Part shown: positions 1-56,130 of the stretch, one piece after another
How the letters are laid out: every line of letters begins with the position of its first letter
How positions within the stretch are numbered: the stretch's first letter is position 1
Origin: a virus
Lineage: Duplodnaviria; Heunggongvirae; Uroviricota; Caudoviricetes
Direction: 5' to 3' (one strand)
Length of the DNA: 64,000 nt
Virus record (IMG/VR): IMGVR_UViG_3300046542_000616
Program-made: the position numbers and the translations under genes
The notes under the pieces: generated by a model
Databases searched by the model: none
What the model was told of the DNA's origin: nothing
What the model saw: the letters and a program-made list of their open reading frames with translations, nothing else

Positions 1-369
1 AAAAAGCTGATCAGAGAAGGGGGCTACACCGTAATCCGGCTTGCTCAGGCAGGATTACTCGACGTCATCGGTGAAATGATGGGGGAGGGATACTGGCCAG
101 AGAAGGTTCAAAAACCATCGTCGCTGGAGGATGCGCTGGATGCTCTCCAGGATCGCACATTACTGCCCTTTTATCGGGTCTATTACACAGCCTTTGTTCG
201 GCATCACCCGATTGAGAGCGTGCTGCCGCTGATGAAATCCCCGAAAATGCAGGCCTTGATGCTTGAGGTCTACCGCGACGACGAACTCATTCCTCATCTT
301 CGTACTGGATTGCTCAAAGGCGCGCCCAGGGTCAGGGGAAAATTACTGGAAAATGGATTGGGGCTCTGA
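1..369 (+). CDS. family-A paralog (DUF4116-like repeat protein with conserved ...LE.xLGL C-terminal module), 5'-truncated by window edge
   Basis: Open frame from nt 1; translation KKLIREGGYTVIRLAQAGLLDVIGEMMGEGYWP... matches the C-terminal module of the downstream paralogs; ends KLLENGLGL*. Confidence 0.7.
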   Translation, partial: KKLIREGGYTVIRLAQAGLLDVIGEMMGEGYWPEKVQKPSSLEDALDALQDRTLLPFYRVYYTAFVRHHPIESVLPLMKSPKMQALMLEVYRDDELIPHLRTGLLKGAPRVRGKLLENGLGL

Positions 370-372
370 TCG

Positions 373-1245
373 ATGACGCGCCTTGAATTGATGACCAATA
401 TCCGGAGAGGGCATGAGTACCGCTTCGAAGATCTTCCTGAAGCCTACGTGGATAAGGAGCTGATCAAGGCATGGCTCAGCAGCGCAGCAGGATTATTGGC
501 GAAGATTCCAAAGCACCTGGTAGATGATGACATACGCAGGCATGCGATCACTGCAAAGCATGAGGATCTGGATATTGACGATTCTCCGATCAAGTACATC
601 GCCATGGCGGATACCCAATGCTATGAGGAGTTGGCGCTGTTGGCGCTTGATCAGACCGAATGGAACATGGAATTCGTTGATCATGCGTTGTATAGCGAGG
701 CCTTTTTCTTGAAGGCCCTGGAAATCAATCCACAAGCGATGATGCATTTTTTCTCGGACTGGACAGAGAACAAAATTGAGATCGAGTGGACTGAAGCGAT
801 GATCGATTCTGCCGTCAGCAAGTCACTGGATTACCTTGAGCACTTAGACAAGAATAAGGTCAAGCAAGAATCCCTTGAGTGCCTGATTCGCGAGGGTCAA
901 TACAGGCCAACCTTGATTGCTGGGGCCGGCCTGCTCGACGTCATGAGCGGCATGATGCGGGACGGGTATTGGCCAGCGATGACTGAAAAGCCATCATCAC
1001 TTGAGGACGGGTTGCGCCTTTTGCTGGAATCTCAAGGTTCGGATGACTTGGTGGTCTATTACAAGGCCTTTGTTCGCCACCATTCGATTAAGAACGTGAT
1101 CCCGTTGATGAAATCACCGAAGCTGCAGGGCTTGATGCTTGAGGTCTACAGCGCTGAAGAGTTGATGCCCCACTTGCGCACAGGTTTGCTTAAAGGCCAC
1201 GCTAAAGTCCGGGGAAAATTACTGGAACATGGATTGGGGCTTTGA
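373..1245 (+). CDS. family-A paralog (290 aa), conserved C-terminal tail ...KLLEHGLGL
   Basis: ORF; N-term FEDLPEAYVDKELIKAWL motif; P..L.DDDIRRHAI repeats; C-term module DGYWP...KPSSLED...LEVYSAEEL...LGL; ATGA overlap with next gene. Confidence 0.8.
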   Translation: MTRLELMTNIRRGHEYRFEDLPEAYVDKELIKAWLSSAAGLLAKIPKHLVDDDIRRHAITAKHEDLDIDDSPIKYIAMADTQCYEELALLALDQTEWNMEFVDHALYSEAFFLKALEINPQAMMHFFSDWTENKIEIEWTEAMIDSAVSKSLDYLEHLDKNKVKQESLECLIREGQYRPTLIAGAGLLDVMSGMMRDGYWPAMTEKPSSLEDGLRLLLESQGSDDLVVYYKAFVRHHSIKNVIPLMKSPKLQGLMLEVYSAEELMPHLRTGLLKGHAKVRGKLLEHGLGL

Positions 1246-2114
1246 ACATGACGCGTGAGGAATTAATCAGGGACGTTCGGGGATGGGAGGTAGAATACAG
1301 CTTCAAAAATCTCCCCAAGGAACACTTGGATAGAGATTTGATCAAGGAGTGGCTCAGTGGCCCTTATGGTGAACTAAGCCAAGTACCAAAGCATCTGCTC
1401 GATGATGACATTCGCCGGCACGCGATAACTTTCGCCCACGAGCAGTGTCACGATATCCCCCTGAAGTCGATCTTGGTTTCGGACACCCCAAATTACGAAG
1501 AGCTGGCGCTACTTTCTCTTAGGGAGAGCAGTACGTTTATGGCGTATGTTGATCCTTCCGTCTACAGCGAGGCGTTTTTCTTGAAGGCGCTGCAAGCCAG
1601 TGGTGCATCGATGATGCACTTTGAGCCAGGTAGGGGTAATGCAAAAATCGAGTGGACTCAGGCGATGATCGATGCAGCGATCAGCCAATCATGTAGCTAC
1701 TTGACGTATTTCCACAAAAGTCAGATCAAAAAAGAGAGCTTCAAACGCATGTTAATCGATGGCGTAGCCAGCGCCATTGATATTGCCGACGCCGGCTTTG
1801 CTGATTTTATTGGTGATGCGATGCGTGATGGTTATTGGCCGAAGGACGAAAAAAAGCCATCATCACTGGACGAGGCGCTCTGTTTCCTGCAAGACGCAAA
1901 GAAATCATCGCGCACGCGGGAGATTTACTACACCGCTTTTGTCCGCCACCATCCGATTGAGGATGTGATCCCCCTGATGAAATCTGCGAAGATGCAGTCA
2001 TTGATGCTGGAAATCTACACCTCGGAAGAGTTGATGCCGCATTTGCGTTCAGGCTTGCTCAGGGGCGCAGGGACGGTCAAAGCCAGACTGGTTGAGGATG
2101 GGCTGGGTTTATGA
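1242..2114 (+). CDS. family-A paralog (290 aa)
   Basis: ORF; ~50% identical to 373..1245; same N motif (FKNLPKEHLDRDLIKEWL) and C tail (RLVEDGLGL); ATGA overlaps both sides. Confidence 0.8.
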   Translation: MNMTREELIRDVRGWEVEYSFKNLPKEHLDRDLIKEWLSGPYGELSQVPKHLLDDDIRRHAITFAHEQCHDIPLKSILVSDTPNYEELALLSLRESSTFMAYVDPSVYSEAFFLKALQASGASMMHFEPGRGNAKIEWTQAMIDAAISQSCSYLTYFHKSQIKKESFKRMLIDGVASAIDIADAGFADFIGDAMRDGYWPKDEKKPSSLDEALCFLQDAKKSSRTREIYYTAFVRHHPIEDVIPLMKSAKMQSLMLEIYTSEELMPHLRSGLLRGAGTVKARLVEDGLGL

Positions 2115-2989
2115 CGCGTGAAGAATTGGAGTCTCTGGTTGTCAACCGTGAAGGCCAGATCGAGCTGTTCCAGGAGCTGCCCAAACAGCACCAGGACAAG
2201 GCCATGGCCCATCTGTGGATCAGTCATGGACGCGGCAGTTTGCGTGATATTCCAGAGGCTCTTATTGATGATGATCTGCGCCTGGCCGCGATGGCGCCCT
2301 GGTCTGGAAGCGAATCCACAAATAGACTAAACATCATTGATTCTTTGGGCCTGATCGAGCCTGGACACACTGAGCGCTATGCGGAAATCGCGCTCCGTGG
2401 CGTGATCAATTGCTCACCAGCCATTTGGTCGGTTGACTTCTCGTTTCTGACCAGCGACTTCCTCAAGAAGACCCTTGCGGGGAACCCGTTGGCCTTGGCC
2501 TCCCTGGTCAGAGACGAAGACAGGTTTACAAGGTCAAAAATTGTCATTGACCAGGACGTGATCGATCTTGCGGTATCTAATAGCACGGGGTATTTCGGGT
2601 ATTTCAAAGCGCATCAATACACTGAGGGCGCCATTCGAAATCTTATCAATAAAATTCTCATTAATTACGAAGAGCTCATTACCATCGGGCGGTTCAATGT
2701 ATTGATCGAGATGATCCGTGAAGGGTTTTGGCCGGGTAATTTTCACAAGCTTCCCACCGATCTTGATGATGGCATTGACCTAATGATGGAAGGGTCTTTT
2801 CTGTATCAGGCCTATGTGATGCAGTACCCAACCAAGGAAGTGATCGAAAAAATGACAACGCCGGAGAGAAAGGCGATGCTGCGCAAAATGTACCCTGCCG
2901 AAGAGCTGCTCAAGCATATGCAAGGCACCCATTTGGGCGGGGATCGAGCCTTCAAAGGCAGTTTGCTGGAAAGCGAGCTCGGCTTGTGA
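2111..2989 (+). CDS. family-A paralog (292 aa)
   Basis: ORF; FQELPKQHQDKAMAHLW motif; C tail SLLESELGL; ATGA overlaps. Confidence 0.8.
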   Translation: MTREELESLVVNREGQIELFQELPKQHQDKAMAHLWISHGRGSLRDIPEALIDDDLRLAAMAPWSGSESTNRLNIIDSLGLIEPGHTERYAEIALRGVINCSPAIWSVDFSFLTSDFLKKTLAGNPLALASLVRDEDRFTRSKIVIDQDVIDLAVSNSTGYFGYFKAHQYTEGAIRNLINKILINYEELITIGRFNVLIEMIREGFWPGNFHKLPTDLDDGIDLMMEGSFLYQAYVMQYPTKEVIEKMTTPERKAMLRKMYPAEELLKHMQGTHLGGDRAFKGSLLESELGL

Positions 2990-3858
2990 CCTATCATGAG
3001 GTGGTCTCCGGCCTGATTTCCGGGAAGGTCAAGAAATTCTCGAACATCCCCGAGGAGCACCTGAACGCCTGGGTCGCCAAGACCTGGGTGCAATATGGCC
3101 GTGGCTCCCTGGTGGACATCCCGGCGCACCTTGTTGATGACGAAGTTCGGATGGCGGCCATGACCGTCGATTCCCCCGTGAATCCGAATTATGAGTTTAT
3201 TGTGCCGTCCTTCAAGACGATTGACCCGTCCCAGACGAGCATTTACGAAGAATTGGCGCTTGAGGGAATTCGGCAAGACCGGTGGGTGCTCGCCTGCGTC
3301 AATCCGGCGCTCATAACCAAGGATTTCGTCCTCAAGGCGCTGGATAAGAATGCTGAGGTGCTGGCCCTGTATTCCCTGTGGTCGCTGAAAAGCCATTTCG
3401 GCCATCTCATTTGCCAGGAGATTGTTGACCACGCATTGTCCAAGTCAGCCATTTACCTGGAGAAGTTCGAGCTGCATTGGTTCACCGAAAAAGCGATCAG
3501 TATTTGTATACAAAACAATGATTTCAACTACCAAACGCTGGTGGATTTGGGTCATTACCATGTCCTGGTGGAGATGATTAGGGAGGGGTTTTGGCCTGCA
3601 TACCACAGACCCGCTCCAAAGAGCCCGGAGGATGCAGTGGAGCGTTGGATGCAGGAGCAAGAGTGCCTGCTGAGTCGAGCCGCTGTTCTCAAATATCCCA
3701 TGGAGGAGATCATTGCTCACATGGCAACGCCGGAAAGAAGGCCCGCGCTTTTGTGCCTCTATACGGTGGACGAGCTGATGCCACACCTCAAGACCAAAGT
3801 CCTGGGACAAGACCAGGTTTTTAAAGGCATTTTGATGGAAAGTGAGATGGGCTTATGA
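2986..3858 (+). CDS. family-A paralog (290 aa)
   Basis: ORF; FSNIPEEHLNAWVAKTW; IPAHLVDDEVRMAAM repeat; C tail ILMESEMGL; ATGA overlaps. Confidence 0.8.
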   Translation: MTYHEVVSGLISGKVKKFSNIPEEHLNAWVAKTWVQYGRGSLVDIPAHLVDDEVRMAAMTVDSPVNPNYEFIVPSFKTIDPSQTSIYEELALEGIRQDRWVLACVNPALITKDFVLKALDKNAEVLALYSLWSLKSHFGHLICQEIVDHALSKSAIYLEKFELHWFTEKAISICIQNNDFNYQTLVDLGHYHVLVEMIREGFWPAYHRPAPKSPEDAVERWMQEQECLLSRAAVLKYPMEEIIAHMATPERRPALLCLYTVDELMPHLKTKVLGQDQVFKGILMESEMGL

Positions 3859-4727
3859 GCCTCACCATCAGCCGTGAAGCATTCGTCATCCGCAAGCATT
3901 TCGATGATGTTCCGGCGCAATACCAGACCTATCAGTTGGCAAGGATATACATCGGGACGGGCAAGTGCAGTTTGAAGGGAATCCCAGAGCGATTTATTGA
4001 TGATGACCTACGCCTGCTCGCTGTCGAAATGGCTCAGAGTGCCGCGTATGCCGGCTTGGCGAAGGAGTCGCTCATGGCCATAAAACCTTCAGATACCGAG
4101 CGCTACGAAGAATTGGCATTGGCCAGCATACGATACGACGACTCCAACGTCAGGTACGTCGACAGTACTGTCATGGGCAATGAATTCATGAAGAAAGCGC
4201 TGGCCGTCAACGGCGATGCCCTGCTTGCATTTCTCAGGGATGCCGCGCATATGGGAAGAATTGACCTCACCCAAGAGCTGATCGACCTGGCAATCTCCAA
4301 CAGCGCCACCTATTTTAAGTTCGATGCGTTCCCCCTTGATCAGTACCGGGTTGAGGCCGTGAGCCAGTGCATCAAAAGCCAGAAATTTAACTTGCGAGAT
4401 TTGCTTAAGGTCGGGCATTTCCAGACATTGGTAGAGGTGATCAAGGAAGGCTGCTGGCCGGATCATTTTCCTGAAAAACCTTCGGGCCTCAAATCTGGAA
4501 TCGACACCATGATGCATCAGCCAGAACATAGCATCCTCGTGTACCGTGCCTATGTGATGAGCCATCCGATATCAGAGGTGGTAGCGCATATGACCAATAC
4601 TCAATACAGCGCCGAGCTGCTCAATATGTATTCCAAGGAAGAACTGGCGCCGTTTCTAAAGAATGGCCCGCTTGCCAAAGACCGTGAATTTAAAGGCCGA
4701 TTACTGGAAAATGAGCTGGGCCTCTGA
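3855..4727 (+). CDS. family-A paralog (290 aa)
   Basis: ORF; FDDVPAQYQTYQLARIY; IPERFIDDDLRLLAV; C tail RLLENELGL. Confidence 0.8.
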   Translation: MSLTISREAFVIRKHFDDVPAQYQTYQLARIYIGTGKCSLKGIPERFIDDDLRLLAVEMAQSAAYAGLAKESLMAIKPSDTERYEELALASIRYDDSNVRYVDSTVMGNEFMKKALAVNGDALLAFLRDAAHMGRIDLTQELIDLAISNSATYFKFDAFPLDQYRVEAVSQCIKSQKFNLRDLLKVGHFQTLVEVIKEGCWPDHFPEKPSGLKSGIDTMMHQPEHSILVYRAYVMSHPISEVVAHMTNTQYSAELLNMYSKEELAPFLKNGPLAKDREFKGRLLENELGL

Positions 4728-4764
4728 TTTAATGAAGTATTGCCAATCGACAGGATGATCGACC

Positions 4765-5655
4765 GTGGAAACACCAGGGCTGAAGGAACTGATTCGCGAC
4801 ATTACCAATGGGAAGATCGACGGTTTCTCAGACCTGGCGCCGCACGATCAAACGACAGAAGGCGCACAAGCTTGGTTTGACGTCAAAATGGCTTTTCTCA
4901 ACGACTCAGATCAAGAGACGATTGAGGCCTACTACGACGAGATTCCCCAGGCGTTGCGTTCCCATGCTGTGCATCTGAGGCTGGTGAAGAACAGCCCGCT
5001 GTCCATTGCCCGGATAACCCCAACGACCGAGCTTGAATATTGCGCCCTGATCAGTGCGGCGGTGACGACAGATCCCGCGTCCATCAATCTTGTCGACCCT
5101 GCCTACCAAACCGAACGCACCCTGCAGCTTGTATTGCCGAAATCCTCTTTCACGCTCAATTATGTCTTTCAAAAGTCCGACTGGGTGCGTCGAGAGCTCA
5201 CACCTGCCCTGGTTGACCTCAGCGCCCAAACTGGCGTGAATGTCCTGCTGGCGGTCGATGAAAGCCTGATCAGCAACAACGCGTTGGATTATTTGCTTTC
5301 AAACCACCTGGATAAGCACGCTCAAGTGCGCCGGGCTGGCAAGCTGCACCTGCTGAGCAAGGGTATCGAGCAAGGCTATTGGCCTCGTGGAAGGCTGAAT
5401 GGAAAGGTGAGTAAGCCAACCTGTTTGCCGGCTGCTGTCCGTATGCTGCTCTGTGCGACCTGCGAGGACACGGAAGCGCTTTACCTGGCCTGTGTGAAGA
5501 CTTACCCGGTTGGCAAGGTTGTAAGGCACCTCAAGGGCCCACTGGGGCGTAAGTTCTTGCTGGAGGCGTACACCACGGACGAACTCAGTCCGCACCTTAA
5601 GCAAATGGATAGCAGTCTCAAGGGGGTGTTGCTGGGCAGTGCGTTGGGATTATGA
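4765..5655 (+). CDS. family-A paralog (296 aa, GTG start, divergent member)
   Basis: ORF after 37-bp gap; C tail GVLLGSALGL; weaker N motif; ATGA overlap with next. Confidence 0.7.
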   Translation: METPGLKELIRDITNGKIDGFSDLAPHDQTTEGAQAWFDVKMAFLNDSDQETIEAYYDEIPQALRSHAVHLRLVKNSPLSIARITPTTELEYCALISAAVTTDPASINLVDPAYQTERTLQLVLPKSSFTLNYVFQKSDWVRRELTPALVDLSAQTGVNVLLAVDESLISNNALDYLLSNHLDKHAQVRRAGKLHLLSKGIEQGYWPRGRLNGKVSKPTCLPAAVRMLLCATCEDTEALYLACVKTYPVGKVVRHLKGPLGRKFLLEAYTTDELSPHLKQMDSSLKGVLLGSALGL

Positions 5656-6551
5656 AGATATTGCGGACGGAGGTTGAGGGATGCGCGCCAGCCGAAGTCA
5701 TCACAGCTATTAATTCTGGCTTGATCCGGCATTTTACTGATGTTCCTGTTCCCTGCAGAACGGAAGAGGTTGCGCTTGCCTGGATCAGAAGGATGAATTT
5801 GACTGGGGAATGCATACAGCGCTCTTATGACGCAGTGCCAGTTGAATCCCGAACCAGTGAGTTCATGATGCTTGCTGCACGGCATGGATGTGCCGTACTC
5901 AAGGATGTAACGCCAGGGCAGTTTCCTGAGTACAGGGAGCTTGCCCGCATGGCAGTTTCCTCGAATATTTTCGCGCTGAAGGATGTTGATCCGCGTTTTT
6001 GCGATGAAGCGATGCTGAAATTTACGCAAGGTGTTTTTCCAGAAGACATTCATAAAATCGCGAGGTCATGCGACTGGATATGGGGTGTAATGCCAGATAA
6101 ATTACTGAATAAAATTGCTCTCCATGACTCGCTCTTTGCGTTTGATATACCCCACGACCGAATGAGCAAGCCACTGCATCGCTACATTGACCTTAGTCAT
6201 CTTTCTTGGCGGCCTGGTAAGACGAATATTATTCGAACCATGGGTAGGCTTGATGTACTCGCGGCGCAGGTGCGTGAGGGGGAATGGTTTGAACACAAGC
6301 TGGAAAAGCCTTCCTCCCTTGAGCAGGCGGTTATCGGGCTGGGCAAAGGCCTAAAGGTAGACTCTGATCATGAAGCGAGCCTTTTGGCCTACGTCATGTC
6401 TCATCCAATTGCAGACGTGGTGCCGGCCATGAAGGGAAATCGCATGAAAAAGCTTCTGTTGGAAATGTATCCCGCCGAGGCCTTGGAGCCTTTTCTGAAA
6501 AATGACGTTGGCTTGCGAGGCGCGATGCTGGAAGGGGAGATGGGCCTGTGA
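5652..6551 (+). CDS. family-A paralog (299 aa; subcluster with CDW..FA.D.P motif)
   Basis: ORF; FTDVPVPCRTEEVALAWI; repeats EFMMLAARHGCAVLKDVTP / EYRELARMAVSSNIFALKDVDP; C tail AMLEGEMGL; overlaps. Confidence 0.8.
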   Translation: MKILRTEVEGCAPAEVITAINSGLIRHFTDVPVPCRTEEVALAWIRRMNLTGECIQRSYDAVPVESRTSEFMMLAARHGCAVLKDVTPGQFPEYRELARMAVSSNIFALKDVDPRFCDEAMLKFTQGVFPEDIHKIARSCDWIWGVMPDKLLNKIALHDSLFAFDIPHDRMSKPLHRYIDLSHLSWRPGKTNIIRTMGRLDVLAAQVREGEWFEHKLEKPSSLEQAVIGLGKGLKVDSDHEASLLAYVMSHPIADVVPAMKGNRMKKLLLEMYPAEALEPFLKNDVGLRGAMLEGEMGL

Positions 6552-7447
6552 GCGATCTCCCTGACATCTGCAGCGTGGATGATGTTTTTCACGACCTCCA
6601 ATACTCCATAATCCATACCTTTCTGGAAATACCGGCGCAGTACCAAACTGTCTCAATGGCAGCTTCCTGGATTGAGAAGACTCGGCTGTCTGGAGTGTGG
6701 CTGCATAGCGCCTTTGAGGAAGTCCCCGCCGAGTTCTGGTCAGGGGATTTCATGCTGGTGGCGGCGCAAAAGGGCTGCCCGGTGCTTAAGGTCGCTGCAC
6801 CTGAGCAGTTTCCAAATTACCGGGAAATTGCCATCGCATCACTGACCGTCAATGGTTGTCACCTCGTTGATGTCGACCCACGATTTCGTGATGATCAGAT
6901 GTTTGTGCACGTTCAGCAGACCTGGCCGGAGCACATGTTTGTCATCGCGAGGACGTGCGATTGGCTTATAGGCGCGGTGTCTGATGAGCTTCTTGATCGG
7001 TCAGCGCGCAGCGATCCGCTGTTTGCCCTGATCGCACCTCACGAACGACTTAGCGAGCCCTTACATCGCTACGTGACTCTGAGTGATCTAACCAATAGGA
7101 TGTGGGCATTCCACATCCTTCGCGAAAACGGTCACCTGCCTATGCTGGCAGCCAAGGTGAGCGAGGGGGAGTGGTTCGAGACTAAATTCACTACAATGAA
7201 AAAACCCGATTCCCTTGAGGATGCCGTTGTTGAGCTGGACAGGCTTAAGTCACTCGATGGCGGACTCGAGGTTATTTTCATGGTTTACATCATGACTTAT
7301 CCTATCGACAAAGTGGTTCCGGCCATGAAGGGCATACGCCTGAAAAAGCTTCTGCTTGAGATGTACTCGGCTGAGGCGCTGGCGCCATTCCTCAAAACTG
7401 ATGTGGAACTGAAGGGGGCGATGCTGGAAAGCGCGATAGGTCTATGA
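6548..7447 (+). CDS. family-A paralog (299 aa)
   Basis: ORF (GTG/ATG start in TGA overlap); FLEIPAQYQTVSMAASWI; C tail AMLESAIGL. Confidence 0.8.
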   Translation: MSDLPDICSVDDVFHDLQYSIIHTFLEIPAQYQTVSMAASWIEKTRLSGVWLHSAFEEVPAEFWSGDFMLVAAQKGCPVLKVAAPEQFPNYREIAIASLTVNGCHLVDVDPRFRDDQMFVHVQQTWPEHMFVIARTCDWLIGAVSDELLDRSARSDPLFALIAPHERLSEPLHRYVTLSDLTNRMWAFHILRENGHLPMLAAKVSEGEWFETKFTTMKKPDSLEDAVVELDRLKSLDGGLEVIFMVYIMTYPIDKVVPAMKGIRLKKLLLEMYSAEALAPFLKTDVELKGAMLESAIGL

Positions 7448-8346
7448 CTCTACTGACAGAATCTTCGAAGCCGTACCAGGTAAATGACGCCATGATTAAC
7501 GGGGCGGTGCGTTGTTTCACAGACCTACCTGAGTGCTTTCAGACACCCGAGAACGCGATCTTTTTTCTACAGCGCGCCCCCAAGGACGCCGACGTTAACA
7601 TCGACTTCCAATACAACACAGTGCCAAAGAATTGCCGGACGGATGCGTTTCTGATGGCCGCTGCGACCTTTGGTTGCAGGGTATTGAAGGATACCTATCC
7701 AGAAGATACGAGGTTTTACCGAGAAATAGCCACTTCGGCCATCAGCGCGAGCAGACTTAGCATAAAAGATGTTTCTCCTGCGTTTCGTGATGAAGAAATG
7801 CTGGAGCGCATAATTAAGCGATATCCAGGTGAAATTCACTCGTTGATGGGACGCATTGATTGGCTGGTAGAGGCCATGTCTGACGATCAGCTCGACAGGT
7901 GCTGTCAGTATGACTTCATGGTCGCTCTGGACGCGCCATCACACAGGATCAAGGGGGATATTGGTCGATACCTGCACCTGGACAAGCTCGATGGCCACGG
8001 GATTGTCTACGTACGGCGCCAGGGTCGTCTAGATCTGATTGCGAGCTGCCTGAAAGACAAGCCTTGGCCCTTTCCGCCATCAGCTGCGCAGATGATGCCT
8101 ACCTTTCCACGGTCAAGGGATCACCTCCTGACTCTGCTTGATAAATCAGACCCGGATACACCATACGAGACGGTGTACATGGCCTGCATGATGAATGAAC
8201 CGATTGAGCAGGTAGTGCCGTTGATGGTCAATAATCGCCTCAAAAAACTGTTGCTGGAAATGCACTCTCAAGAGGCGCTGGCGCCATACCTGAAAGCGGA
8301 CGTTGGGCTTCGCGGCCTGATGCTGGAAGAGGCGATTGGCCTATGA
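7444..8346 (+). CDS. family-A paralog (300 aa)
   Basis: ORF; FTDLPECFQTPENAIFFL; CCQYDFMVALDAPSHRIKGDIGRYL motif; C tail LMLEEAIGL. Confidence 0.8.
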   Translation: MTLLTESSKPYQVNDAMINGAVRCFTDLPECFQTPENAIFFLQRAPKDADVNIDFQYNTVPKNCRTDAFLMAAATFGCRVLKDTYPEDTRFYREIATSAISASRLSIKDVSPAFRDEEMLERIIKRYPGEIHSLMGRIDWLVEAMSDDQLDRCCQYDFMVALDAPSHRIKGDIGRYLHLDKLDGHGIVYVRRQGRLDLIASCLKDKPWPFPPSAAQMMPTFPRSRDHLLTLLDKSDPDTPYETVYMACMMNEPIEQVVPLMVNNRLKKLLLEMHSQEALAPYLKADVGLRGLMLEEAIGL

Positions 8347-9251: not shown

Positions 9252-9253
9252 GC

Positions 9254-11540: not shown

Positions 11541-11606
11541 CCTTGATTTTTTTCAATTAAGGCTACTTTGACGACGCCACCAGACCTCTAACTGCGGACG
11601 GACTTC

Positions 11607-12479: not shown

Positions 12480-12494
12480 GAAAGGAATCTGCTG

Positions 12495-15631: not shown

Positions 15632-15650
15632 CGGCAAAAGGGCTCTTCCC

Positions 15651-40935: not shown

Positions 40936-40965
40936 GTTCTTTTGCGGTTGTTCTGAGCTTGTCGC

Positions 40966-42182: not shown

Positions 42183-42287
42183 GCTGATGGTGCGTGCGGC
42201 AAGACTCTCAGTGCTTGTGCCATAATCCTAAGATATCGCAGTCCCGTCGAGCGTTGAATGCCTTGTCGATTGCGTGGCCAATAGCTC

Positions 42288-42324
42288 AATCCCTATACTG
42301 GGTAAAGACCAAGGAGATTTTCGC
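42288..42324 (+). promoter_or_regulatory. conserved promoter/leader of P-family gene 3 (CCCTATACTG ... CCAAGGAGATTTTCGCATG)
   Basis: See 36757..36792. Confidence 0.45.
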
Positions 42325-47294: not shown

Positions 47295-47351
47295 TATGTG
47301 ACTGTCCTATCGAGAATGGTAGCTCTTGCTGGCGCAAGAAATCGAAGGCGA

Positions 47352-48496: not shown

Positions 48497-49071
48497 AGTC
48501 CGAGCCCATCCTCAAGGTGCTTCCCTTTAAATTTTCGGGCTATGTCTTTGGGCACGTACTGGATGGCCTTAAGCCCGAACACTTCGACGAATATCTTGCT
48601 CTGTTGCTCGTTTGTTACCTCGGCACCAACGGATTCGGCGCCTCGTTCTTCGAGCATGGCCTTGACGCGTGTCTGGTTAATCGCCATGTCATCGCGGTAA
48701 TACTGGATGATTTCATGCAGATCCAGCAATTTGGCGTTACTCATGTGCGCCTTACCCACATCAAGGCCAAAGACGTCAAAAAACAACTCGAAGTCCATAT
48801 CATCTTCGAGATGAGGCACCACCTTGGCTGGCTCATGGCGACCAACAAGCTGTCTGAAGATGAAAAACTCAGGGCTTTCGCCCCCGGTTTGTCCCGCAAA
48901 GAAAATCAGGTCTTCGATGGCCATGGATTCTTCGGTGGCGTACCTGCCTGTCGCAAGCTCCTGGGCGATGAAGGCACGGCATTCTTCGGTGCTCATGTCC
49001 TGGTAGTTTTCAGGGGTGATGACGATGGGGAATTCGTAGTCTTCGCGCTGGCGCCGGCTCATCTTTTTCAT
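48493..49071 (-). CDS. family-B paralog (192 aa)
   Basis: ORF; FVEVFGLKAIQYVPKDIARKFKGKHLEDGLGL*. Confidence 0.8.
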   Translation of the reverse strand: MKKMSRRQREDYEFPIVITPENYQDMSTEECRAFIAQELATGRYATEESMAIEDLIFFAGQTGGESPEFFIFRQLVGRHEPAKVVPHLEDDMDFELFFDVFGLDVGKAHMSNAKLLDLHEIIQYYRDDMAINQTRVKAMLEERGAESVGAEVTNEQQSKIFVEVFGLKAIQYVPKDIARKFKGKHLEDGLGL

Positions 49072-49649
49072 AGACCCATTAACTCCTCAAGGTGATTGCC
49101 TTTAAATTGGGTTGCCAGGTCTTTGCTCACAAACTGGACGGACTTCAGGCCAAAGAGTTTGACGAAACTCTGGCATGTGTCTTTTGTTTTGACCTGGGCG
49201 GCGACGTCTTCTATCCCTCGCCCAATGAGCGTGTGGCCGATCTTGGTCAAGCTGATGTGTTCGCTCTCGCCCTGGCCTTCGAGGTAGGTGAAAACTTGAA
49301 GCAATTGCACAGTACTCAATAGCGTGTTGGCCCGATCATTCCCATACAGCTCAAAAAAAATAACCGTGTCGAGTTCGCTCTCTACGTGCCGCGCCACTTC
49401 GACCGGGTCTTTACGAACCATGATCAATCGGTAGAGGAAGTGTTCCGGTGACTCCTGCCAGGCCGAGTAGAAACAGCAGTGCAGCAGATCGTGAATGGCA
49501 AGCGATTCCTCGAAGGCGTGGTTGCCTGTCTGAAGCTGTTGATCGACAAAAGCGCGGCGTTCGGCTGTGCTCATGACCTCGTAGCCGACAGGAGCGGTGA
49601 TCCGGATTTTATTCAAGACCGAAAAGTTGATTGGCGGCAAGTCAGTCAT
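49068..49649 (-). CDS. family-B paralog (193 aa)
   Basis: ORF; FVKLFGLKSVQFVSKDLATQFKGNHLEELMGL*. Confidence 0.8.
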   Translation of the reverse strand: MTDLPPINFSVLNKIRITAPVGYEVMSTAERRAFVDQQLQTGNHAFEESLAIHDLLHCCFYSAWQESPEHFLYRLIMVRKDPVEVARHVESELDTVIFFELYGNDRANTLLSTVQLLQVFTYLEGQGESEHISLTKIGHTLIGRGIEDVAAQVKTKDTCQSFVKLFGLKSVQFVSKDLATQFKGNHLEELMGL

Positions 49650-50245
49650 AAGCCGATGGCCTCCTCAAGCTGTCTTCCCTTGGCGTGGTTGGCGATGTGC
49701 TTGGGGAGGTGAATGTTTGACTCGACTCCGAAGATATCGAGGAATAGGGCGCCCCCTGCCTTGCACCATATAGACTCAGCAACACGCTCTGCGCCCCTGT
49801 TCTGGAGCAGTAACTTCACCTGCTGCGTGGTTGTGGCTTCTTCGCGGTGAAAGGTTACTAGAGAAAACGCCTTCAGCCAGATTTCGTCACTGATGTAGGG
49901 CAGGGATGTCTCAAGTCCATACGACTCCAGAAAGAACCTGGCGTCGTGCTCATCTCTGATCTTATCAGCAGCGAGTGACGGCTCAACGTCAGCCAGTAGC
50001 ATCCGGTACATGAAATAGTTCGGATGCCATGGCAGAACCCTCAGGCCCATTTGGAAGATGGAAGCAATCGAGACTTCATCTGCCTTTCGATACTTGCCTG
50101 AATCCAGCTCTTTACGCACCCAGGTACGACGATCTTCAAAGCTGAAGCTTGGAAAGTCCTTCGGGTAATTCGTGATCTCCCGGAGTGGGAAACGCTCTGG
50201 TTCGTGGCTGGTCATTGGCATCTCGATCTGCCGTGTGGTCGACAT
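49646..50245 (-). CDS. family-B paralog (199 aa)
   Basis: ORF; FLDIFGVESNIHLPKHIANHAKGRQLEEAIGL*. Confidence 0.8.
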   Translation of the reverse strand: MSTTRQIEMPMTSHEPERFPLREITNYPKDFPSFSFEDRRTWVRKELDSGKYRKADEVSIASIFQMGLRVLPWHPNYFMYRMLLADVEPSLAADKIRDEHDARFFLESYGLETSLPYISDEIWLKAFSLVTFHREEATTTQQVKLLLQNRGAERVAESIWCKAGGALFLDIFGVESNIHLPKHIANHAKGRQLEEAIGL

Positions 50246-50314
50246 GTCTTCATGGTATGCGAGGAGCGCAGCATGGCGCAGGTTTTTAAGCCTGGTTCAC
50301 CTACGCTTTTAGCT

Positions 50315-50719
50315 TCAAAGTCCCAGTGCATCCTCAAGCATCATGCCTTTGACCTTGCGAAGAAGCACCGGCCCGACAAGATTGGCTCGATCCATGCCGA
50401 CCATTACCAGGAAATGCTTGGCCTGGATGGTGACGTCTTCTTTAGCTTGCGCCAGCTCTCTGCCGGCCTTCTCAAAACCGTATGTCTCCAGTAGCCGAGC
50501 GACCAGCATCCACATGTAGGAGCCGGGTTTCGATCTGCAGACTTTCAGCCACCTGAGCTTTTCGATGGTGTTCCTTTTTTCGACGCCGAGCTCCTCGTGG
50601 TTTTGAATGACGCGCTCGATCAAGCCGGATTTTGCTGCATGACAGAGTTCGTGCCAGATGATGCGTCCTTCGAGAATGTCATCGGCCACAGTAGGTTGGT
50701 TTTTCTTCACAGTGTTCAT
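50315..50719 (-). CDS. family-B short paralog (134 aa)
   Basis: ORF; FLVMVGMDRANLVGPVLLRKVKGMMLEDALGL*; ~133-aa short architecture. Confidence 0.7.
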   Translation of the reverse strand: MNTVKKNQPTVADDILEGRIIWHELCHAAKSGLIERVIQNHEELGVEKRNTIEKLRWLKVCRSKPGSYMWMLVARLLETYGFEKAGRELAQAKEDVTIQAKHFLVMVGMDRANLVGPVLLRKVKGMMLEDALGL

Positions 50720-51114
50720 AGTCCCAGGGCATCTTCCAGAAATTTTCCTTTGACCTTTTTTGCCAAGTCAGGGGAAAGCAGAGAAAGCGCCCTGAATCCA
50801 AAAGCCTCGATGAAGCTTCTAGCGTGCCAATCCATTGTCAAATGCTTGGCGGCCTCTTCAGGATCAAATCTTTGCAGCAAGGATATGAACATGAAGTGCA
50901 GGGGGGAAGTAGCAGAACTGTAGACGCAGCAAAAGAAAATAACATCTTTCGCGCCAAGACTTTTTTCTCGCTCAAAATCCCCAAGCGCCATTTCATTCAA
51001 AACCCATTCCTTGCGCGCTGTGTAGCTGCGCTGGTGGAAGTCTGCAGGCTTGTTCGGAAACGAATTACCGACGTAAACCCTGCCTTCAATGCTCTCAGTA
51101 TGGTCTAGGTGCAT
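50716..51114 (-). CDS. family-B short paralog (~133 aa; ORF extends to 51231 but the upstream part overlaps the previous gene)
   Basis: Likely start at the Met of MHLDHTESIEG...; FIEAFGFRALSLLSPDLAKKVKGKFLEDALGL*; N-terminus collinear with the N-terminus of 51146..51727. Confidence 0.6.
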   Translation of the reverse strand: MHLDHTESIEGRVYVGNSFPNKPADFHQRSYTARKEWVLNEMALGDFEREKSLGAKDVIFFCCVYSSATSPLHFMFISLLQRFDPEEAAKHLTMDWHARSFIEAFGFRALSLLSPDLAKKVKGKFLEDALGL

Positions 51115-51145
51115 TTTCTGTTTTTCCAGTGTCTGTTCACGGCGA

Positions 51146-51727
51146 TCACAGGCCAAGCTCCCCTTCCAAAAGGTGTCCTTTGACCTGTTTTGCCAGGTCG
51201 GGTTGCAGTAAAGAAAGCGCTTTGATCCCAAAAATCTCGGCGAATAGGACGCCTGCTTCCTTGTTGTGGATCAAAAGAGAGATGTGTTCCGCACCTCTGC
51301 TTTCAATAATCAATTTGAGTCCCTCTCTGATGCCCTGGTCAGGATCAGACAGTCCAGCTAGGTATAAGGCCTGCAGCCAAAGCTGGCTGGTGAAGAATGG
51401 TTTTGATCGCTCAAGGCCAAAGGCTTCAAAAAACAGCCTGGCCTGAAAGTCGTACTCAACATACTTGGCTGCATCTTCTGGCTCAAATCCCTGAAGCAAG
51501 AAGCGAAACATGAAGTAGTGAGGTGTGTATGTGCTATGGAAGCCACCAACGGACAGAATCTCTTCCAGGCCCATTTTCTTCTCAACACTGAAGTCGCCAT
51601 GGGCGATTTCGCACATAACCCAGTCCATACGATCTGCGTAGCTTCGTTCCGCGAAGTCTTCGGGCCGGTTTGGAAACGGATTGCGCGTGTAGAGAAAGTT
51701 GCTCTCAGTGAGGTCTGAATGGGCCAT
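51146..51727 (-). CDS. family-B paralog (193 aa)
   Basis: ORF; FAEIFGIKALSLLQPDLAKQVKGHLLEGELGL*. Confidence 0.8.
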   Translation of the reverse strand: MAHSDLTESNFLYTRNPFPNRPEDFAERSYADRMDWVMCEIAHGDFSVEKKMGLEEILSVGGFHSTYTPHYFMFRFLLQGFEPEDAAKYVEYDFQARLFFEAFGLERSKPFFTSQLWLQALYLAGLSDPDQGIREGLKLIIESRGAEHISLLIHNKEAGVLFAEIFGIKALSLLQPDLAKQVKGHLLEGELGL

Positions 51728-52874: not shown

Positions 52875-53516
52875 TCAAAGGCCCAGTGCGTTCTCCAGGT
52901 GGCGCGACTTGAACCGTCGTGCCATTTCCTGAGGTAGACCTTCTACTGCCTTCAGTCCAAAAATCTCGATAAAGCTTTGCCCCCAAAGAACGGACAAATT
53001 CATGCGCCGTATTTGTGAGGGCGTTCGGTTATGGATTTCTTCGCAGAGCTGTTCAGCGCCACGCTCGAGTAGGATGGTCTTGATCTGGTCATTGGTCTTA
53101 CCGCTTACGGATGACCTGAAACGAGAGTCTCGATAAGCGCACATCCAGCTATAGCTGGAGAGGAACGGCTTGGCACGCTCCAGTCCGTAGGATTCGAGAA
53201 AGAATCTGGCCTGGTTGGTTTTGATCTCCGGGGCCGCTACGGCGGGATCAATGTTTTCCATCTGTATTCGGTATTGATAGTACTCCCTCTCGGTGTCTTT
53301 GCGGTACGAGCCTCTATCAAGGATCTGACGAACCGAGATGTAATTCTCGTCAGGGTGCTTGCCCGCCAGCATTAGCTCGCGAATGTGCTGACGACGCTCG
53401 GCCATGCTCATCTCAAGAAAGAGCTTCGTGTCTTCTGGGCTATAGTCGATAATGGTCATGAAGTTTACCTGATCGCGAGTGTTGTTGGTTTGCAGTGAAT
53501 CTTGGTCAGATTTCAT
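52875..53516 (-). CDS. family-B paralog (213 aa, N-terminal extension)
   Basis: ORF; FIEIFGLKAVEGLPQEMARRFKSRHLENALGL*. Confidence 0.75.
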   Translation of the reverse strand: MKSDQDSLQTNNTRDQVNFMTIIDYSPEDTKLFLEMSMAERRQHIRELMLAGKHPDENYISVRQILDRGSYRKDTEREYYQYRIQMENIDPAVAAPEIKTNQARFFLESYGLERAKPFLSSYSWMCAYRDSRFRSSVSGKTNDQIKTILLERGAEQLCEEIHNRTPSQIRRMNLSVLWGQSFIEIFGLKAVEGLPQEMARRFKSRHLENALGL

Positions 53517-53917
53517 TACAGGCCAATTTGTTCTTCGAGGAGCCTTCCTTTGACCTGGTTGGCGAGATCCCTGCCCAACAAGGCGGCTTTCTCAATGCCA
53601 AAGGCCTCAATGAAGCATCGGGCCAGGCGCAAGTTACCCTCGGCCTCAGCAATCTCCCGACCCACCTGCTCAAGTCCTCGTAGCTCCACGGAGCGTACCG
53701 CGAACATGTAGAGGTAGGTGCCAGGCTGCCGGTCAGAGTCGATGATCGACCAGAGCATGTGCACTGAGCTCATGGCGTCGATGCCGGTATGCTCGCGATT
53801 GAGGATAGCTCGGTCAACCAAAGCTGATTTTTCTGCATGGCTCAGCGAATTCCAGACGATGCGCTTGGATTTGATGCTCCCAAGGACGGTGCCTTGGTAG
53901 GGGGCGGTTGAGTTCAT
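53516..53917 (-). CDS. family-B short paralog (133 aa)
   Basis: ORF; FIEAFGIEKAALLGRDLANQVKGRLLEEQIGL*. Confidence 0.7.
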   Translation of the reverse strand: MNSTAPYQGTVLGSIKSKRIVWNSLSHAEKSALVDRAILNREHTGIDAMSSVHMLWSIIDSDRQPGTYLYMFAVRSVELRGLEQVGREIAEAEGNLRLARCFIEAFGIEKAALLGRDLANQVKGRLLEEQIGL

Positions 53918-54489
53918 AGGCCTAGCTCATCCGAAAGATGCTTCCCCTTGACCTGATTGGCTAGATCAGCGGGCAGCAAAGTAAGCGATTTTACCCCAAA
54001 AATCTCGACAAAGTGTGCGCCATTTTCTCCGTCCTTTACAAATGGGAGCACCGCTTCTGCGCCACGACTTTTCAGTAGAAGCTTGATCATGTCCCTCGCT
54101 TTCATCTCTTCCGGTGTGAATGGGCACTCAGACATTGCCTTAAGCCAGAGGTCGGTCGATACATGGGGTGTTGCCCGCTCGAGTTCGTAGGCCAGGATAA
54201 AAAAGACCGCTCTGACTGCGCCTCTGATATGGGGCGCGGTCTGTTCTGGGTCAATCGCTGACAACAAAATGAGATACATGTAGTACTCTGGGCGCCATTC
54301 GTGAGAGGTGGCCCCGAAAGACAACACAAGCTGAAAGGGCAGGCTTTTGGCGACAGCATAATCCCCGGTAGCGAGCTCTTGCTCGACCCATGCGCGTCGT
54401 TCGTCACTGCTGAGGTCTGCGAAGTCCTTTGGTGGATTTTGAAAGTAATTCCGGTCGTACTTTTCGACGTCGTCCAGTGTAACGGCCAT
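53914..54489 (-). CDS. family-B paralog (191 aa)
   Basis: ORF; FVEIFGVKSLTLLPADLANQVKGKHLSDELGL*. Confidence 0.8.
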   Translation of the reverse strand: MAVTLDDVEKYDRNYFQNPPKDFADLSSDERRAWVEQELATGDYAVAKSLPFQLVLSFGATSHEWRPEYYMYLILLSAIDPEQTAPHIRGAVRAVFFILAYELERATPHVSTDLWLKAMSECPFTPEEMKARDMIKLLLKSRGAEAVLPFVKDGENGAHFVEIFGVKSLTLLPADLANQVKGKHLSDELGL

Positions 54490-55082
54490 TACAGCCCCAG
54501 CTCATCTTCAAGCTGCCGGCCTTTGAGCTTTGAGGCCAGGCCACTTTCGAGGTGACAAGCCGCACGAATACCAAAGATCTTGATGAAATGTCGCGCCATA
54601 GTGAGCCTCCCAGGTTCGCTGGAAGATCCAGTTTCTGGTGTTTTCCGGACTTCTTCGGCGATTTTTTCCGCCCCACGGCTTTTGAGTATCTCGACAATAC
54701 CTGGAGTATTATTGTGGTGATGATATGTTTGAAGCCAAAGACGGCTCGATAGGTAGGGCTTTGAGCGTTCCAAACCGTAGGCTTGCAGGAAGGTTCGGGC
54801 ATCGTCGGTGTATTTCATTTCCGCTGCCACGATGACGGGATCCAACCCCTCAATGGCCATACGGTAGCGGTAGTACGGCTGCTCCCAGTCCCCGTAGATA
54901 CTGCACAATGTCATCAGTTCGCGGACATCTTTCAGCTGGTCTTCTTTGAATCGCCCGTTGGCAATCTGGTCGCGAACATGGGCTATGCGCTGCTCCAAAG
55001 ACATCGCCACAAATGCTTCGGCTGCGAGCCGTTCATTGACGATTTCAGTATGTGCCTGGACGACTTCCTCGAATGTACTCAT
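54489..55082 (-). CDS. family-B paralog (197 aa)
   Basis: ORF; FIKIFGIRAACHLESGLASKLKGRQLEDELGL*. Confidence 0.8.
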   Translation of the reverse strand: MSTFEEVVQAHTEIVNERLAAEAFVAMSLEQRIAHVRDQIANGRFKEDQLKDVRELMTLCSIYGDWEQPYYRYRMAIEGLDPVIVAAEMKYTDDARTFLQAYGLERSKPYLSSRLWLQTYHHHNNTPGIVEILKSRGAEKIAEEVRKTPETGSSSEPGRLTMARHFIKIFGIRAACHLESGLASKLKGRQLEDELGL

Positions 55083-55098
55083 TGCTCACCTGTTTTGT

Positions 55099-55704
55099 TC
55101 ATAAGCCCAAGGCGTCTTCAAGATGCCGGGATTTTATCTTTTTGGCGAGTTCAGGGGGTAGGCCAGCAACGGCTTTTAGCCCAAAAAGCTCAATGAAGCT
55201 GTCAGCCCAGTCTTTCAAAATCAACATTCGCTCAATCTGCTCAGGGGATCTGCCTCTGATTTCTTCACAGACTTTTTCGACGCCCCTATCCTGAATCAAA
55301 AGGCCGATATCCCGTTTGGTCAGTGCGTTGTTTTCGAAACTACCGTTGGATTTTCGGTAGGCGGCGATCCACAGGTAGCTAGACAAATATGGCTTTGCGC
55401 GCTCCAGCCCATAGGAATCCATGAAAAATCGGGCATCGTTGACTGTGTCGATATATTTTACAGCTATCGCCGGGTCGGAGTTTTCCAGCTGGATGCGGTG
55501 CCCATAATATTCCCATTCGGCGTTAACAAACTTCTGGCCCTCGTGAAAAAGCTCATCGATAGGAAGGTTCTGATCGTATTTGTAGGTGCCGTCCGTAATG
55601 AGACCACGAACCCACTCTCGGCGCTCTGCGACAGTCATGTGCCAAAAAAGCTTCTGAGGTTCTGTTTGAAGGCAAAGGCCTTTGGGAGGAGTGGTTTCGG
55701 TCAT
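55099..55704 (-). CDS. family-B paralog (201 aa)
   Basis: ORF; FIELFGLKAVAGLPPELAKKIKSRHLEDALGL*. Confidence 0.8.
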   Translation of the reverse strand: MTETTPPKGLCLQTEPQKLFWHMTVAERREWVRGLITDGTYKYDQNLPIDELFHEGQKFVNAEWEYYGHRIQLENSDPAIAVKYIDTVNDARFFMDSYGLERAKPYLSSYLWIAAYRKSNGSFENNALTKRDIGLLIQDRGVEKVCEEIRGRSPEQIERMLILKDWADSFIELFGLKAVAGLPPELAKKIKSRHLEDALGL

Positions 55705-55758
55705 AAGGTCTACCTGGCTGCCGGTAAGATGATTGGGCGCGGTTCGGGTGCCTGTGTG

Positions 55759-56130
55759 TCACATGCCCAGGGCGTCTTCCAGAAGCATCCCTTTGGCCTG
55801 CCAGAAGAGGTCGGAGGGCAGAAGGGATTCGGCAGCCTTGATTCCGAATATATCGGTGAACATCCGTGCGCCATGTTTATTGGTCACTTTAAGCGCGACA
55901 TCGTCGGCGGTATGCCAGCGCTGCAGTATTCCGGATGCCTGCCGGTATTGCGCACTTCCTGGCTTGAAAAAACCACTGAGCAGAAGACCTAAGATGTGGT
56001 CTTGTTCGATACCTGGCTGAGGCTTCAATTGCCCGGTGGCCAGGGAGTGGAGAACGCTCGTTCGCTCAGCCGGACTCAGATCGCCGAACGGGATTTCGCC
56101 GTTCAATATGCCTTTTTCTACCAGGTTCAT
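55759..56130 (-). CDS. family-B short paralog (123 aa), first gene of the minus array; ends ...LLEDALGM
   Basis: ORF; FTDIFGIKAAESLLPSDLFWQAKGMLLEDALGM*. Confidence 0.7.
   Translation of the reverse strand: MNLVEKGILNGEIPFGDLSPAERTSVLHSLATGQLKPQPGIEQDHILGLLLSGFFKPGSAQYRQASGILQRWHTADDVALKVTNKHGARMFTDIFGIKAAESLLPSDLFWQAKGMLLEDALGM

Follow-up and report, generated by a model that had tools for sequence, protein, structure and literature searches.

What could make 48 genes on both strands of one locus end in the same few amino acids? The question is raised by a 64,000-nucleotide stretch of DNA (IMG/VR record IMGVR_UViG_3300046542_000616, hereafter the window, meaning the whole stretch), in which long arrays of two protein families, here called A and B, carry a common carboxyl-terminal tail, the tag. 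An earlier note, made from the letters alone, had claimed that 48 genes share the tail, and there are indeed 48 stop-adjacent tails, 33 on the plus strand and 15 on the minus strand. From sequence comparisons that reach well beyond the window, the tag is a portable C-terminal element on otherwise unrelated, domain-less and probably all-helical proteins. The tagged genes of the two families are as follows (lengths in amino acids, aa).

1..13403, plus strand: A array block 1, 16 tandem genes with the tag
1-369 (5' end cut by the window), 373-1245, 1248-2114, 2111-2989, 2986-3858, 3855-4727, plus strand: genes of A block 1
4765-5655, 5652-6551, 6548-7447, 7444-8346, 8343-9251, 9248-10144, plus strand: genes of A block 1, continued
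10141-11055, 11052-11540 (truncated, 162 aa), 11607-12479, 12495-13403, plus strand: genes of A block 1, end
14759..30059, plus strand: A array block 2, 17 tandem genes with the tag
14759-15631, 15745-16632, 16632-17504, 17504-18379, 18379-19260, 19263-20141, plus strand: genes of A block 2
20177-21073, 21076-21981, 21978-22859, 22856-23734, 23731-24609, 24606-25502, plus strand: genes of A block 2, continued
25499-26383, 26380-27249, 27246-28112, 28109-29092, 29145-30059, plus strand: genes of A block 2, end
46899..51727, minus strand: B array block 1, nine genes with the tag
46899-47294 (131 aa, C-terminal-half type), 47352-47930, 47927-48496, 48493-49071, 49068-49649, minus strand: genes of B block 1
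49646-50245, 50315-50719 (134 aa), 50716-51114 (132 aa), 51146-51727, minus strand: genes of B block 1, end
52875..56130, minus strand: B array block 2, six genes with the tag
52875-53516, 53516-53917 (133 aa), 53914-54489, 54489-55082, 55099-55704, 55759-56130 (123 aa, ends LGM), minus strand: genes of B block 2

Every one of the 48 tails fits the pattern basic(−11)-G/A(−10)-x-x-L(−7)-E(−6)-[ED…](−5)-x-[LIM](−3)-G(−2)-L(−1). The motif as first spelled out, [KR]G..LE[DE].[LIM]G[LM], is too narrow when taken literally and matches only 20 of the 48 tails, the others being near variants (KA..LEE.LGL, KS..LE, LEN, LEG, LES). A looser 7-mer, L[EDGS][EDNGSQH].[LIM]G[LMIF], occurs 47 times over the six reading frames, and 45 of these occurrences abut a stop codon. 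Gly(−2) never varies (48/48), position −3 is always L, I or M (48/48), and Leu(−1), Leu(−7) and Glu(−6) are found in 46, 46 and 45 tails, respectively. No other run of 12 columns is as conserved as the last 12, either in the A alignment (information content 3.19, versus a mean of 1.83) or in the B alignment (3.24 versus 2.23). In general form the tag has a basic residue at −11, a hydrophobic residue at −7, one or two acidic residues between −4 and −6, and [LIM]-G-[LM] at the free carboxyl end; its helix is amphipathic, with hydrophobic residues at −12, −8, −7, −3 and −1, and is often preceded by an L-P turn ∼15 to 20 residues before the end.

The selection that maintains the tail acts on the protein, because synonymous codons vary freely at every tail position: Gly(−2) is encoded by GGC in 25 tails, GGA in 12, GGT in six and GGG in five, and Leu(−1) by six different codons. 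Its target is neither a DNA repeat nor a ribosome-binding site nor a gene overlap. Most array neighbors overlap by ATGA, and the tail is kept on genes without this overlap, namely those bounded by 12479 and 13403 (TAG stops), by 30059, and by 46899 and 47352 (TAA stops), so that the earlier note was right to separate the tail from the overlap.

A proteins are 288 to 327 aa long, most of them 288 to 304 aa with one of 327 aa, leaving aside the 162-aa truncated copy and the gene cut by the window. The B proteins comprise a long form (189 to 213 aa) and a heterogeneous short form (123 to 134 aa); these three size classes had been put forward as three architectures, and the short B proteins are truncation variants of the long ones. 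Upstream of the window on the same contig are five more A genes and two tagged genes of a further family, C (∼530 to 540 aa), which stand at the head of the array and end …RGEILEGAMGL; in an hhalign comparison of C with A, the tail is the sole common part. The replicon thus has ∼38 copies of A (33 in the window plus five upstream) and 15 of B. Syntenic loci in two relatives (contigs L010 and L011) have one C gene, two or three A genes and no B genes, so that the long A and B arrays are a lineage-specific amplification. This is not recent at the DNA level, because the paralogs are only 20 to 50% identical. We found no pseudogene fragments of A or B in the array gaps. The gap that splits the A array contains a single gene, on the minus strand at 13465-14118, for an ERCC4/XPF-type nuclease with helix-hairpin-helix motifs (Pfam E value of 6e-28).

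How much do A and B share besides the tail? The earlier note had the two families superimposable over the final ∼11 residues with wholly different N-terminal fold signatures. The tail is indeed shared, but the common stretch is longer: profile-profile comparison of the full families gives a probability of 92 to 93% (E values of 2e-7 to 5e-7), with the signal confined to the last ∼34 to 55 residues (93%, E value of 2e-7, for the ∼34-aa module). This module is predicted to have three helices, with the pattern [LF]-h-E-h-[YF]-[SG]…L-P…[KR]-G-x-x-L-E-x-x-h-G-L, and in B-long proteins its first half recurs internally in degenerate form. When the last 12 residues are removed, the P value is 5e-4 with window-only alignments and 4e-3 with enlarged alignments (probability of 8 to 31%), and with the last 34 residues removed no A-B signal is left. 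The bodies are not detectably related, but a weak residual similarity (P value of 2.5e-4 in the body comparison) remains, and because of it A and B may be distant relatives.

AlphaFold2 models predict that the tag is a confident terminal helix rather than a floppy peptide. The A protein encoded at 7444-8346 is modeled with a predicted local distance difference test score (pLDDT) of 94.9 and 20 helices, the tail being in helix 287-297, and the B protein encoded at 51146-51727 (pLDDT of 91.8) is all alpha, with the tail in helix 176-190. The N-terminal half of A aligns with a PGAP-annotated DUF4116 protein of the FeN3W megaplasmid (hhalign probability of 93.8, E value of 1.8e-7), whose gene adjoins SPFH and R2K genes; the Pfam DUF4116 model has no match in A at an E value of ≤1.

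Where does this locus come from? The sequence places the window with pMPPla107 and pBASL58, Pseudomonas megaplasmids of ∼1 Mb, as a piece of a relative that has not been cultured. Membership of this family is judged by a related Rep3/RepB initiator, a size of ∼0.9 to 1.2 Mb, a G+C content of ∼53 to 55% and shared gene blocks. The Rep3 initiator lies not in the window itself but on a sister contig (L005), close to the head of the array, and is 56% identical to that of the FeN3W plasmid (910 kb), 51% to that of P. silesiensis pPL1 (1.17 Mb) and 48% to that of pMPPla107 (972 kb). Sister contigs are 0.95 to 1.28 Mb long. The G+C content of the window is 0.47 to 0.54, about 52% overall, in keeping with the 52.8% that the family paper gives for pMPPla107 and its range of 52.8 to 55.4% for pMPPla107 and pBASL58 (PMC6482414). 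The link from the window to the known plasmids came by way of Rep3 and the R2K ATP-grasp protein, orthologs of which are present on all of the compared family plasmids. In PLSDB both pMPPla107 and pBASL58 are typed as MPF_I (a Dot/Icm-like conjugation system), with DotA/TraY or PilV shufflon genes among their annotations. Contig L010 (437 kb; NCBI GCA_016337225.1) is labeled Pseudomonas putida; its 52% G+C content and megaplasmid synteny block point to a probable origin in a pMPPla107-family megaplasmid, not in the chromosome. We note that the R2K protein of the locus has 32% identical homologues on megaplasmids (0.88 to 0.94 Mb) of Vibrio vulnificus and V. parahaemolyticus, which also carry type I-F CRISPR (clustered regularly interspaced short palindromic repeats) genes, a hint that the clade of ∼1 Mb plasmids may be wider.

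The earlier note had proposed a search for further carriers of the tail, and we found them on pMPPla107, pBASL58, pPL1, L010 and L011. By this comparison the tag is far more widespread than the window alone shows and is a hallmark of the whole megaplasmid family. Six stretches of pMPPla107 totaling 290 kb contain 54 tagged open reading frames (ORFs) of 162 to 668 aa, ∼19% of the annotated genes in these stretches, with tails of the form R-[DE]-x-x-[FLI]-[GAS]-x-[DN]-L-G-[LMI]. The register is that of the window (basic at −11, hydrophobic at −7 and −3, G at −2 and L at −1), and both G at −2 and L or M at −3 are found in 26 of 26 pMPPla107 tails. Here too there are tandem arrays of tagged paralogs, of seven (∼440 to 480 aa), three (∼420 aa) and six (∼190 to 220 aa) genes, all annotated as hypothetical, in the regions L023 (250-300 kb), L022 and L016; two ∼200-aa neighbors on pMPPla107 end …FSIDLGL. 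Of 37 genes in 41 kb of pBASL58, 14 end L-x-x-[DE]-[LM]-G-[LM], six tagged proteins of pPL1 (397 to 582 aa) end …FS[KQ]DLGL, L010 and L011 have two to four tagged ORFs, and the FeN3W plasmid has one clear case plus a few acidic-hydrophobic variants (DDDFSL and EGFDL endings). The tag is absent from a 49-kb pMPPla107 stretch with DotA/TraY, type IV pilus and radical-SAM genes, and from 41 kb of a Vibrio megaplasmid that shares the R2K gene; among the samples read it is restricted to the pMPPla107/pBASL58 plasmid family. Extrapolation from the sampled density gives ∼150 to 200 tagged proteins per plasmid.

The proteins that carry the tag have little else in common. Once 20 residues are trimmed from their C-termini, the 141 tagged proteins collected from the window and from four related megaplasmids sort into 33 body clusters by BLAST and iterative hidden Markov model (HMM) searches, and none of 91 profile-profile comparisons among the 14 multimember clusters reaches 50% probability; the body alignments are shallow, and by unrelated bodies we mean bodies with no detectable relationship. 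These results argue that the tail is not the leftover of one domain in truncated relatives, and they sustain the earlier proposal of a variable body with a fixed, portable tail. Tagged proteins range from 123 to 668 aa, many of those on pMPPla107 and pBASL58 being ∼500 to 560 aa, and Pfam domains are lacking in all 20 tagged pMPPla107 proteins that were scanned. None of the annotated housekeeping, replication or repair enzymes checked on pMPPla107 and pBASL58 has the tag. A Sir2 enzyme of pMPPla107 ends ...AEFGL, and we set this aside as a coincidence, the pBASL58 ortholog being without the ending.

Scans of A, B, C, P (see below) and tagged pMPPla107 proteins against Pfam, NCBIfam and PADLOC found no domain. 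Neither the A profile nor the first of the DotM_C-like proteins described below matches a solved structure by sequence, and no relatives were found among GTDB genomes with the A profile or with RNase R. Viral contigs have no A family, and the feature is therefore not one of phages. Searches of PLSDB by tblastn with the A and B proteins of the window gave no match; the two families are specific to the window's lineage, and both are confined to a handful of metagenome assemblies. A search of 1.84 billion representative proteins with a 36-aa version of the module returned 95 proteins at an E value of ≤0.001, all of them A-like or B-like except for two false positives (leucine-rich/ankyrin repeats and mucin repeats). 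The longer module is specific to the lineage; what extends to the whole family is only the last ∼12 residues. A motif literature search found no published description of the tag, and the searched passages of the megaplasmid family paper do not mention it.

Between the A and B arrays is a conserved core, whose gene order is common to L010 and L011. Its principal features, and the paralogs that follow it, are as follows.

31674..40882, plus strand: conserved core with Pfam matches, gene order common to L010 and L011
34997..35479, plus strand: soluble DotM_C-like protein 1, 160 aa (Pfam DotM_C, E value of 5.9e-7, 30.3 bits versus a cut-off of 27)
35507..36133, plus strand: soluble DotM_C-like protein 2, 208 aa (Pfam DotM_C, E value of 1.3e-4, 22.6 bits, below the cut-off)
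36562..37833, plus strand: P1, 423 aa, paralog of P2 and P3, ends ...KPISYDGGLGM
38957..39637, plus strand: further tagged gene of another family, 226 aa, ends ...RKDAGTLLSDQLGV
40898..42142, plus strand: P2, 414 aa, ends ...YDTDLSPGM
42274..43116, plus strand: P3, 280 aa, ends ...HDEPGFGM

The core consists of two SPFH genes, DUF808, the gene for a 175-aa protein (p175, 34447-34974), the two DotM_C-like genes, the gene for a 157-aa protein (p157, 36146-36619), P1, a gene on the minus strand for a lipoprotein-like protein of 243 aa, the tagged 226-aa gene and the R2K ATP-grasp gene. The L010 'Pseudomonas putida' assembly and a metagenome scaffold of 952 kb have this order too, and P. silesiensis pPL1 keeps it in part. 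DotM_C-like protein 1 also matches the NCBIfam DotM/IcmP model (E value of 2e-4) and is syntenic in L010, L011 and L014; protein 2 is its paralog, with orthologs 56 to 65% identical in L010 and L011. The tagged gene at 38957-39637 has a GTG start and is masked by a longer antisense ORF at 38852-39586 (minus strand, 244 aa). Its ortholog in L010 is 219 aa long and ends ...RKDRVTLLSDQLGV; the conserved gene is the plus-strand one, and the antisense ORF is probably spurious. No Pfam domain was found in the 226-aa protein. The GLGM, SPGM and GFGM endings reported earlier for the three P proteins are as stated; the P1 tail fits the register of the tag (K at −11, Y at −7, D at −6, then L-G-M) and is a possible degenerate form of it, and P2 departs from it with Pro at −3.

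Several other genes stand around the arrays and the core. A 456-aa protein encoded at 30112-31482 (minus strand) has four ∼110-aa internal repeats (…YF.V.GD.T.YYDA.EAA.AF…V.VM.G.GYG.EVAGVN..GEAFLNKLDFQ…) and no convincing Pfam match. A minus-strand family of ∼130 aa has one copy in the window (44358-44753) and three or four in relatives (L010, 16383-19232; L011, 13927-15355), and ends near …F[HY]GKL[IL]E[ED]L plus two to six residues, which is a loose likeness to KG..LEE that is not at the extreme end. A complete IS200/IS605 element at 56676-58436 encodes TnpB (56676-57980, minus strand) and a TnpA-like Y1 transposase (58011-58436, plus strand; identified by sequence and position only), and stands between the B array and a segment with helix-turn-helix proteins and a Lon-like AAA+ ATPase. 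The latter (60274-62241, 655 aa) has a Lon-type ATPase module (TIGR00763, E value of 8e-12; Pfam AAA), no protease domain was detected in it, and no homologue was detected in the sampled stretches of pMPPla107, pBASL58 and pPL1. Further downstream (L006, L007) are an ART-PolyVal-like gene and CcdA and Phd/PIN toxin-antitoxin genes. The window has no tRNA or Rfam matches.

What, then, is the tag for? We consider it likely that it is a recognition signal of some shared kind. In the scheme that we favor, one plasmid-encoded machine would read the tag. As candidate reader we put first the coupling complex that serves the Dot/Icm-like (MPF_I, type IVB) transfer apparatus of the plasmid, because the plasmid family encodes such a system and because DotM_C-like proteins are encoded in the conserved locus. 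The two soluble DotM_C-like proteins would be candidate receptors or adaptors for the tag, and the tagged proteins would be cargo delivered into recipient or target cells. This choice draws on four precedents. The ligands of Legionella DotM include acidic C-terminal signals (PMC5802825); the adaptor LvgA recognizes a helical motif at the C-terminus, with hydrophobic residues at i and i+4, so that a helical tag is compatible with a type IVB route, and the hydrophobic −3 residue of the tag recalls the RalF-type signal (both PMC7251119); and a type IVB system of Pseudomonas putida delivers a protein toxin into other bacteria (PMC9519443). By analogy with these, type IVB secretion as the specific machine is plausible, if somewhat short of probable. 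In the fuller picture, about one protein in six would end in a ∼12-residue helix closing with D/x-L-G-L-COOH, and this near-deterministic label would send orphan proteins, in a repertoire the size of Legionella's, by way of the Dot/Icm-like apparatus into recipient or competitor cells, with cargo arrays expanded to 15 to 40 copies in some lineages. That picture is more tentative still, and we regard it as doubtful in all its parts together.

A number of observations weigh against type IVB delivery. This sequence analysis found no receptor for the tag, and the tag is in a confident helix (pLDDT of about 92 in A) that ends a helical body. Classical Dot/Icm signals are degenerate and are regarded as flexible; so strict a motif is unlike the known ones, and the tag has one or two acidic residues and no EExxE block. 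Soluble DotM_C-like proteins were not detected by tblastn in the tag-rich pMPPla107, and the part of the contig that was read shows only the two such proteins as type IVB-related genes on the window's own replicon. To our knowledge, the transfer system of pMPPla107-family plasmids is known only for conjugation. Finally, conservation through the last residue would suit other carboxylate readers just as well, be it a PDZ-like domain, an AAA+ unfoldase or the ABC (ATP-binding cassette) transporter of a type I secretion system.

The main rival dispenses with a reader altogether. A and B, together with the other tagged families, could belong to one fast-evolving helical-repeat superfamily in which the tail is the conserved last repeat plus a capping helix, inherited by descent and with no targeting role. 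The all-helical AlphaFold2 models with their confident terminal helix are what this predicts, as are the 34-aa module common to A and B, its internal half-copy in B-long, the weak similarity of the A and B bodies (P values of 2.5e-4 to 5e-4) and the resemblance of the A body to DUF4116 repeats; the recurrent ∼500- to 560-aa size of the tagged pMPPla107 and pBASL58 proteins points the same way, and the shallow alignments leave room for deep homology. We nonetheless think it unlikely, for the bodies form 33 clusters even after iterative HMM searching, with no match in 91 comparisons at 50% probability, the proteins range from 123 to 668 aa, and conservation peaks at the extreme C-terminus and runs through the last residue, the remainder having diverged beyond recognition. 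An ordinary structural cap needs no invariant Gly-Leu at a free end.

If the tag is instead a signal, it need not be one for secretion. C-terminal hydrophobic tags are classic degrons of AAA+ proteins, as in ssrA (...LAA), and …LGL, similarly hydrophobic and conserved to its last residue, could be read by an AAA+ unfoldase or protease, either the protein encoded at 60274-62241 with its Lon-type ATPase module or host ClpXP or Lon, which would give the tagged proteins a common regulated lifetime. We judge this improbable: the AAA+ gene, which the earlier note had named as encoding a candidate partner, lies beyond the IS605 element in a different mobile-looking segment and has no other tie to the tag, it lacks both a detected protease domain and detected counterparts in the sampled parts of the other plasmids, and the tag, at 12 to 20 residues and helical, is longer than typical degrons. 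There is about as little to recommend a docking role, in which the terminal helix would plug the proteins, inside the cell, into each other or into a common scaffold, for instance a complex or compartment specific to the plasmid, or the SPFH and DUF808 membrane proteins of the locus. That the tag is an amphipathic helix and that these membrane protein genes are conserved beside tagged genes would suit such a role, but adjacency is its whole basis; the ∼50 window proteins scanned have no Pfam match to an encapsulin or microcompartment protein, no gene for a shell or scaffold was recognised, and the net charge of the tag is neutral to acidic, unlike membrane-targeting helices.

Less credible again is a DNA-metabolism hub peptide, with the tail mimicking a sliding-clamp motif (Pol IV ends QLVLGL) or a single-stranded DNA-binding protein (SSB)-type tip and recruiting its carriers to the plasmid replisome. 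The clamp-binding consensus is QL[SD]LF/QLxLxL, and the last three or four residues of the tag, [DS]-L-G-L, resemble its end; replication and repair genes are numerous on the plasmids of the family (PMC6482414), and the DDDFSL and EGFDL endings on the FeN3W plasmid recall the SSB tip, DDDIPF. However, the Gln and Leu of clamp positions 1 and 2 are absent (at −6 and −5 the window has E and E/D, whereas pMPPla107 has G/A/S and then a variable residue), an estimated 150 to 200 clamp ligands per plasmid is implausible, and the annotated replication and repair enzymes checked on pMPPla107 and pBASL58 are without the tag. Lastly, a nucleotide-level artefact, whether from the ATGA overlap, from the Shine-Dalgarno sequence of a following gene or from gene conversion in the recent past, is refuted, for although many array genes overlap by ATGA and GAGG-like strings occur in the Glu codons, synonymous codons vary freely throughout and the tail is found on nonoverlapping and isolated genes, on both strands and on five different plasmids.

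We return to the reading in which the tag is a signal for a shared machine, and to what it would mean. pMPPla107 is a transferable ∼1 Mb plasmid, and the family paper puts the genes without assigned function at close to 90% (PMC6482414). A tag on about a fifth of the sampled pMPPla107 proteins would sort this unassigned content into a defined class, and because pMPPla107 is experimentally tractable, the tag is directly testable there. If the reader is the transfer apparatus, then conjugative megaplasmids would inject large sets of effectors, which would change the view of plasmid establishment, plasmid cost and inter-bacterial conflict, and engineering would gain a secretion signal of unusual simplicity. 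Should the reader be of another kind, a degron or docking code used across the plasmid would still amount to a new principle of organisation in a mobile element.

How does the tag compare with known systems? The helical-repeat proteins of DUF4116, for which we know of no function, resemble A in its N-terminal half, but the DUF4116 proteins of FeN3W do not carry the tag. The type I secretion signals of proteases and lipases have acidic and then hydrophobic residues at the extreme C-terminus, and the tag likewise has the character of an uncleaved, extreme C-terminal signal, with a D-L-G-L pattern and an amphipathic helix upstream. However, the tagged proteins are without RTX/GG repeats (no Pfam match), no pair of ABC transporter and membrane fusion protein was seen in the window, and the number of carriers is far above that of any known type I system. 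An architectural parallel is XVIPCD, an ∼120-aa folded domain of a type IVA system. In the Xanthomonas type IVA antibacterial effectors, variable N-terminal bodies are joined to this one conserved C-terminal element, which is read by the coupling protein (PMC8740702). The shared element of the tagged proteins differs in being only 12 to 34 aa long, with no known domain model that matches it.

With Dot/Icm substrates the tag shares the placement of a signal in the last ∼20 to 35 residues of many unrelated, mostly orphan and often paralogous proteins, and the combination of acidic residues with a hydrophobic −3, in a plasmid family that has an MPF_I system and at a locus with DotM_C-like proteins. 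It differs in that its consensus stays strict up to the carboxyl end, with G at −2 in 48 of 48 tails of the window and in 26 of 26 of pMPPla107, and in that it does not conform to the E-block (EExxE ∼10 to 17 residues from the end, with a low pI): the acidic positions are E(−6) and [ED](−5) in the window and D(−4) and D/E(−10) in pMPPla107, with the basic −11 conserved. Nor does it match the LvgA-type FxxxLxxxK, for the tag is hydrophobic at −7 and −3 and then ends two residues on, with no Lys at +4. Its carrier, moreover, is a conjugative megaplasmid of free-living or plant-associated Pseudomonas rather than an intracellular pathogen. Yet even with the E-block and FxxxLxxxK features failing, the known element that the tag acts most like would be the type IV secretion signal of an effector repertoire.

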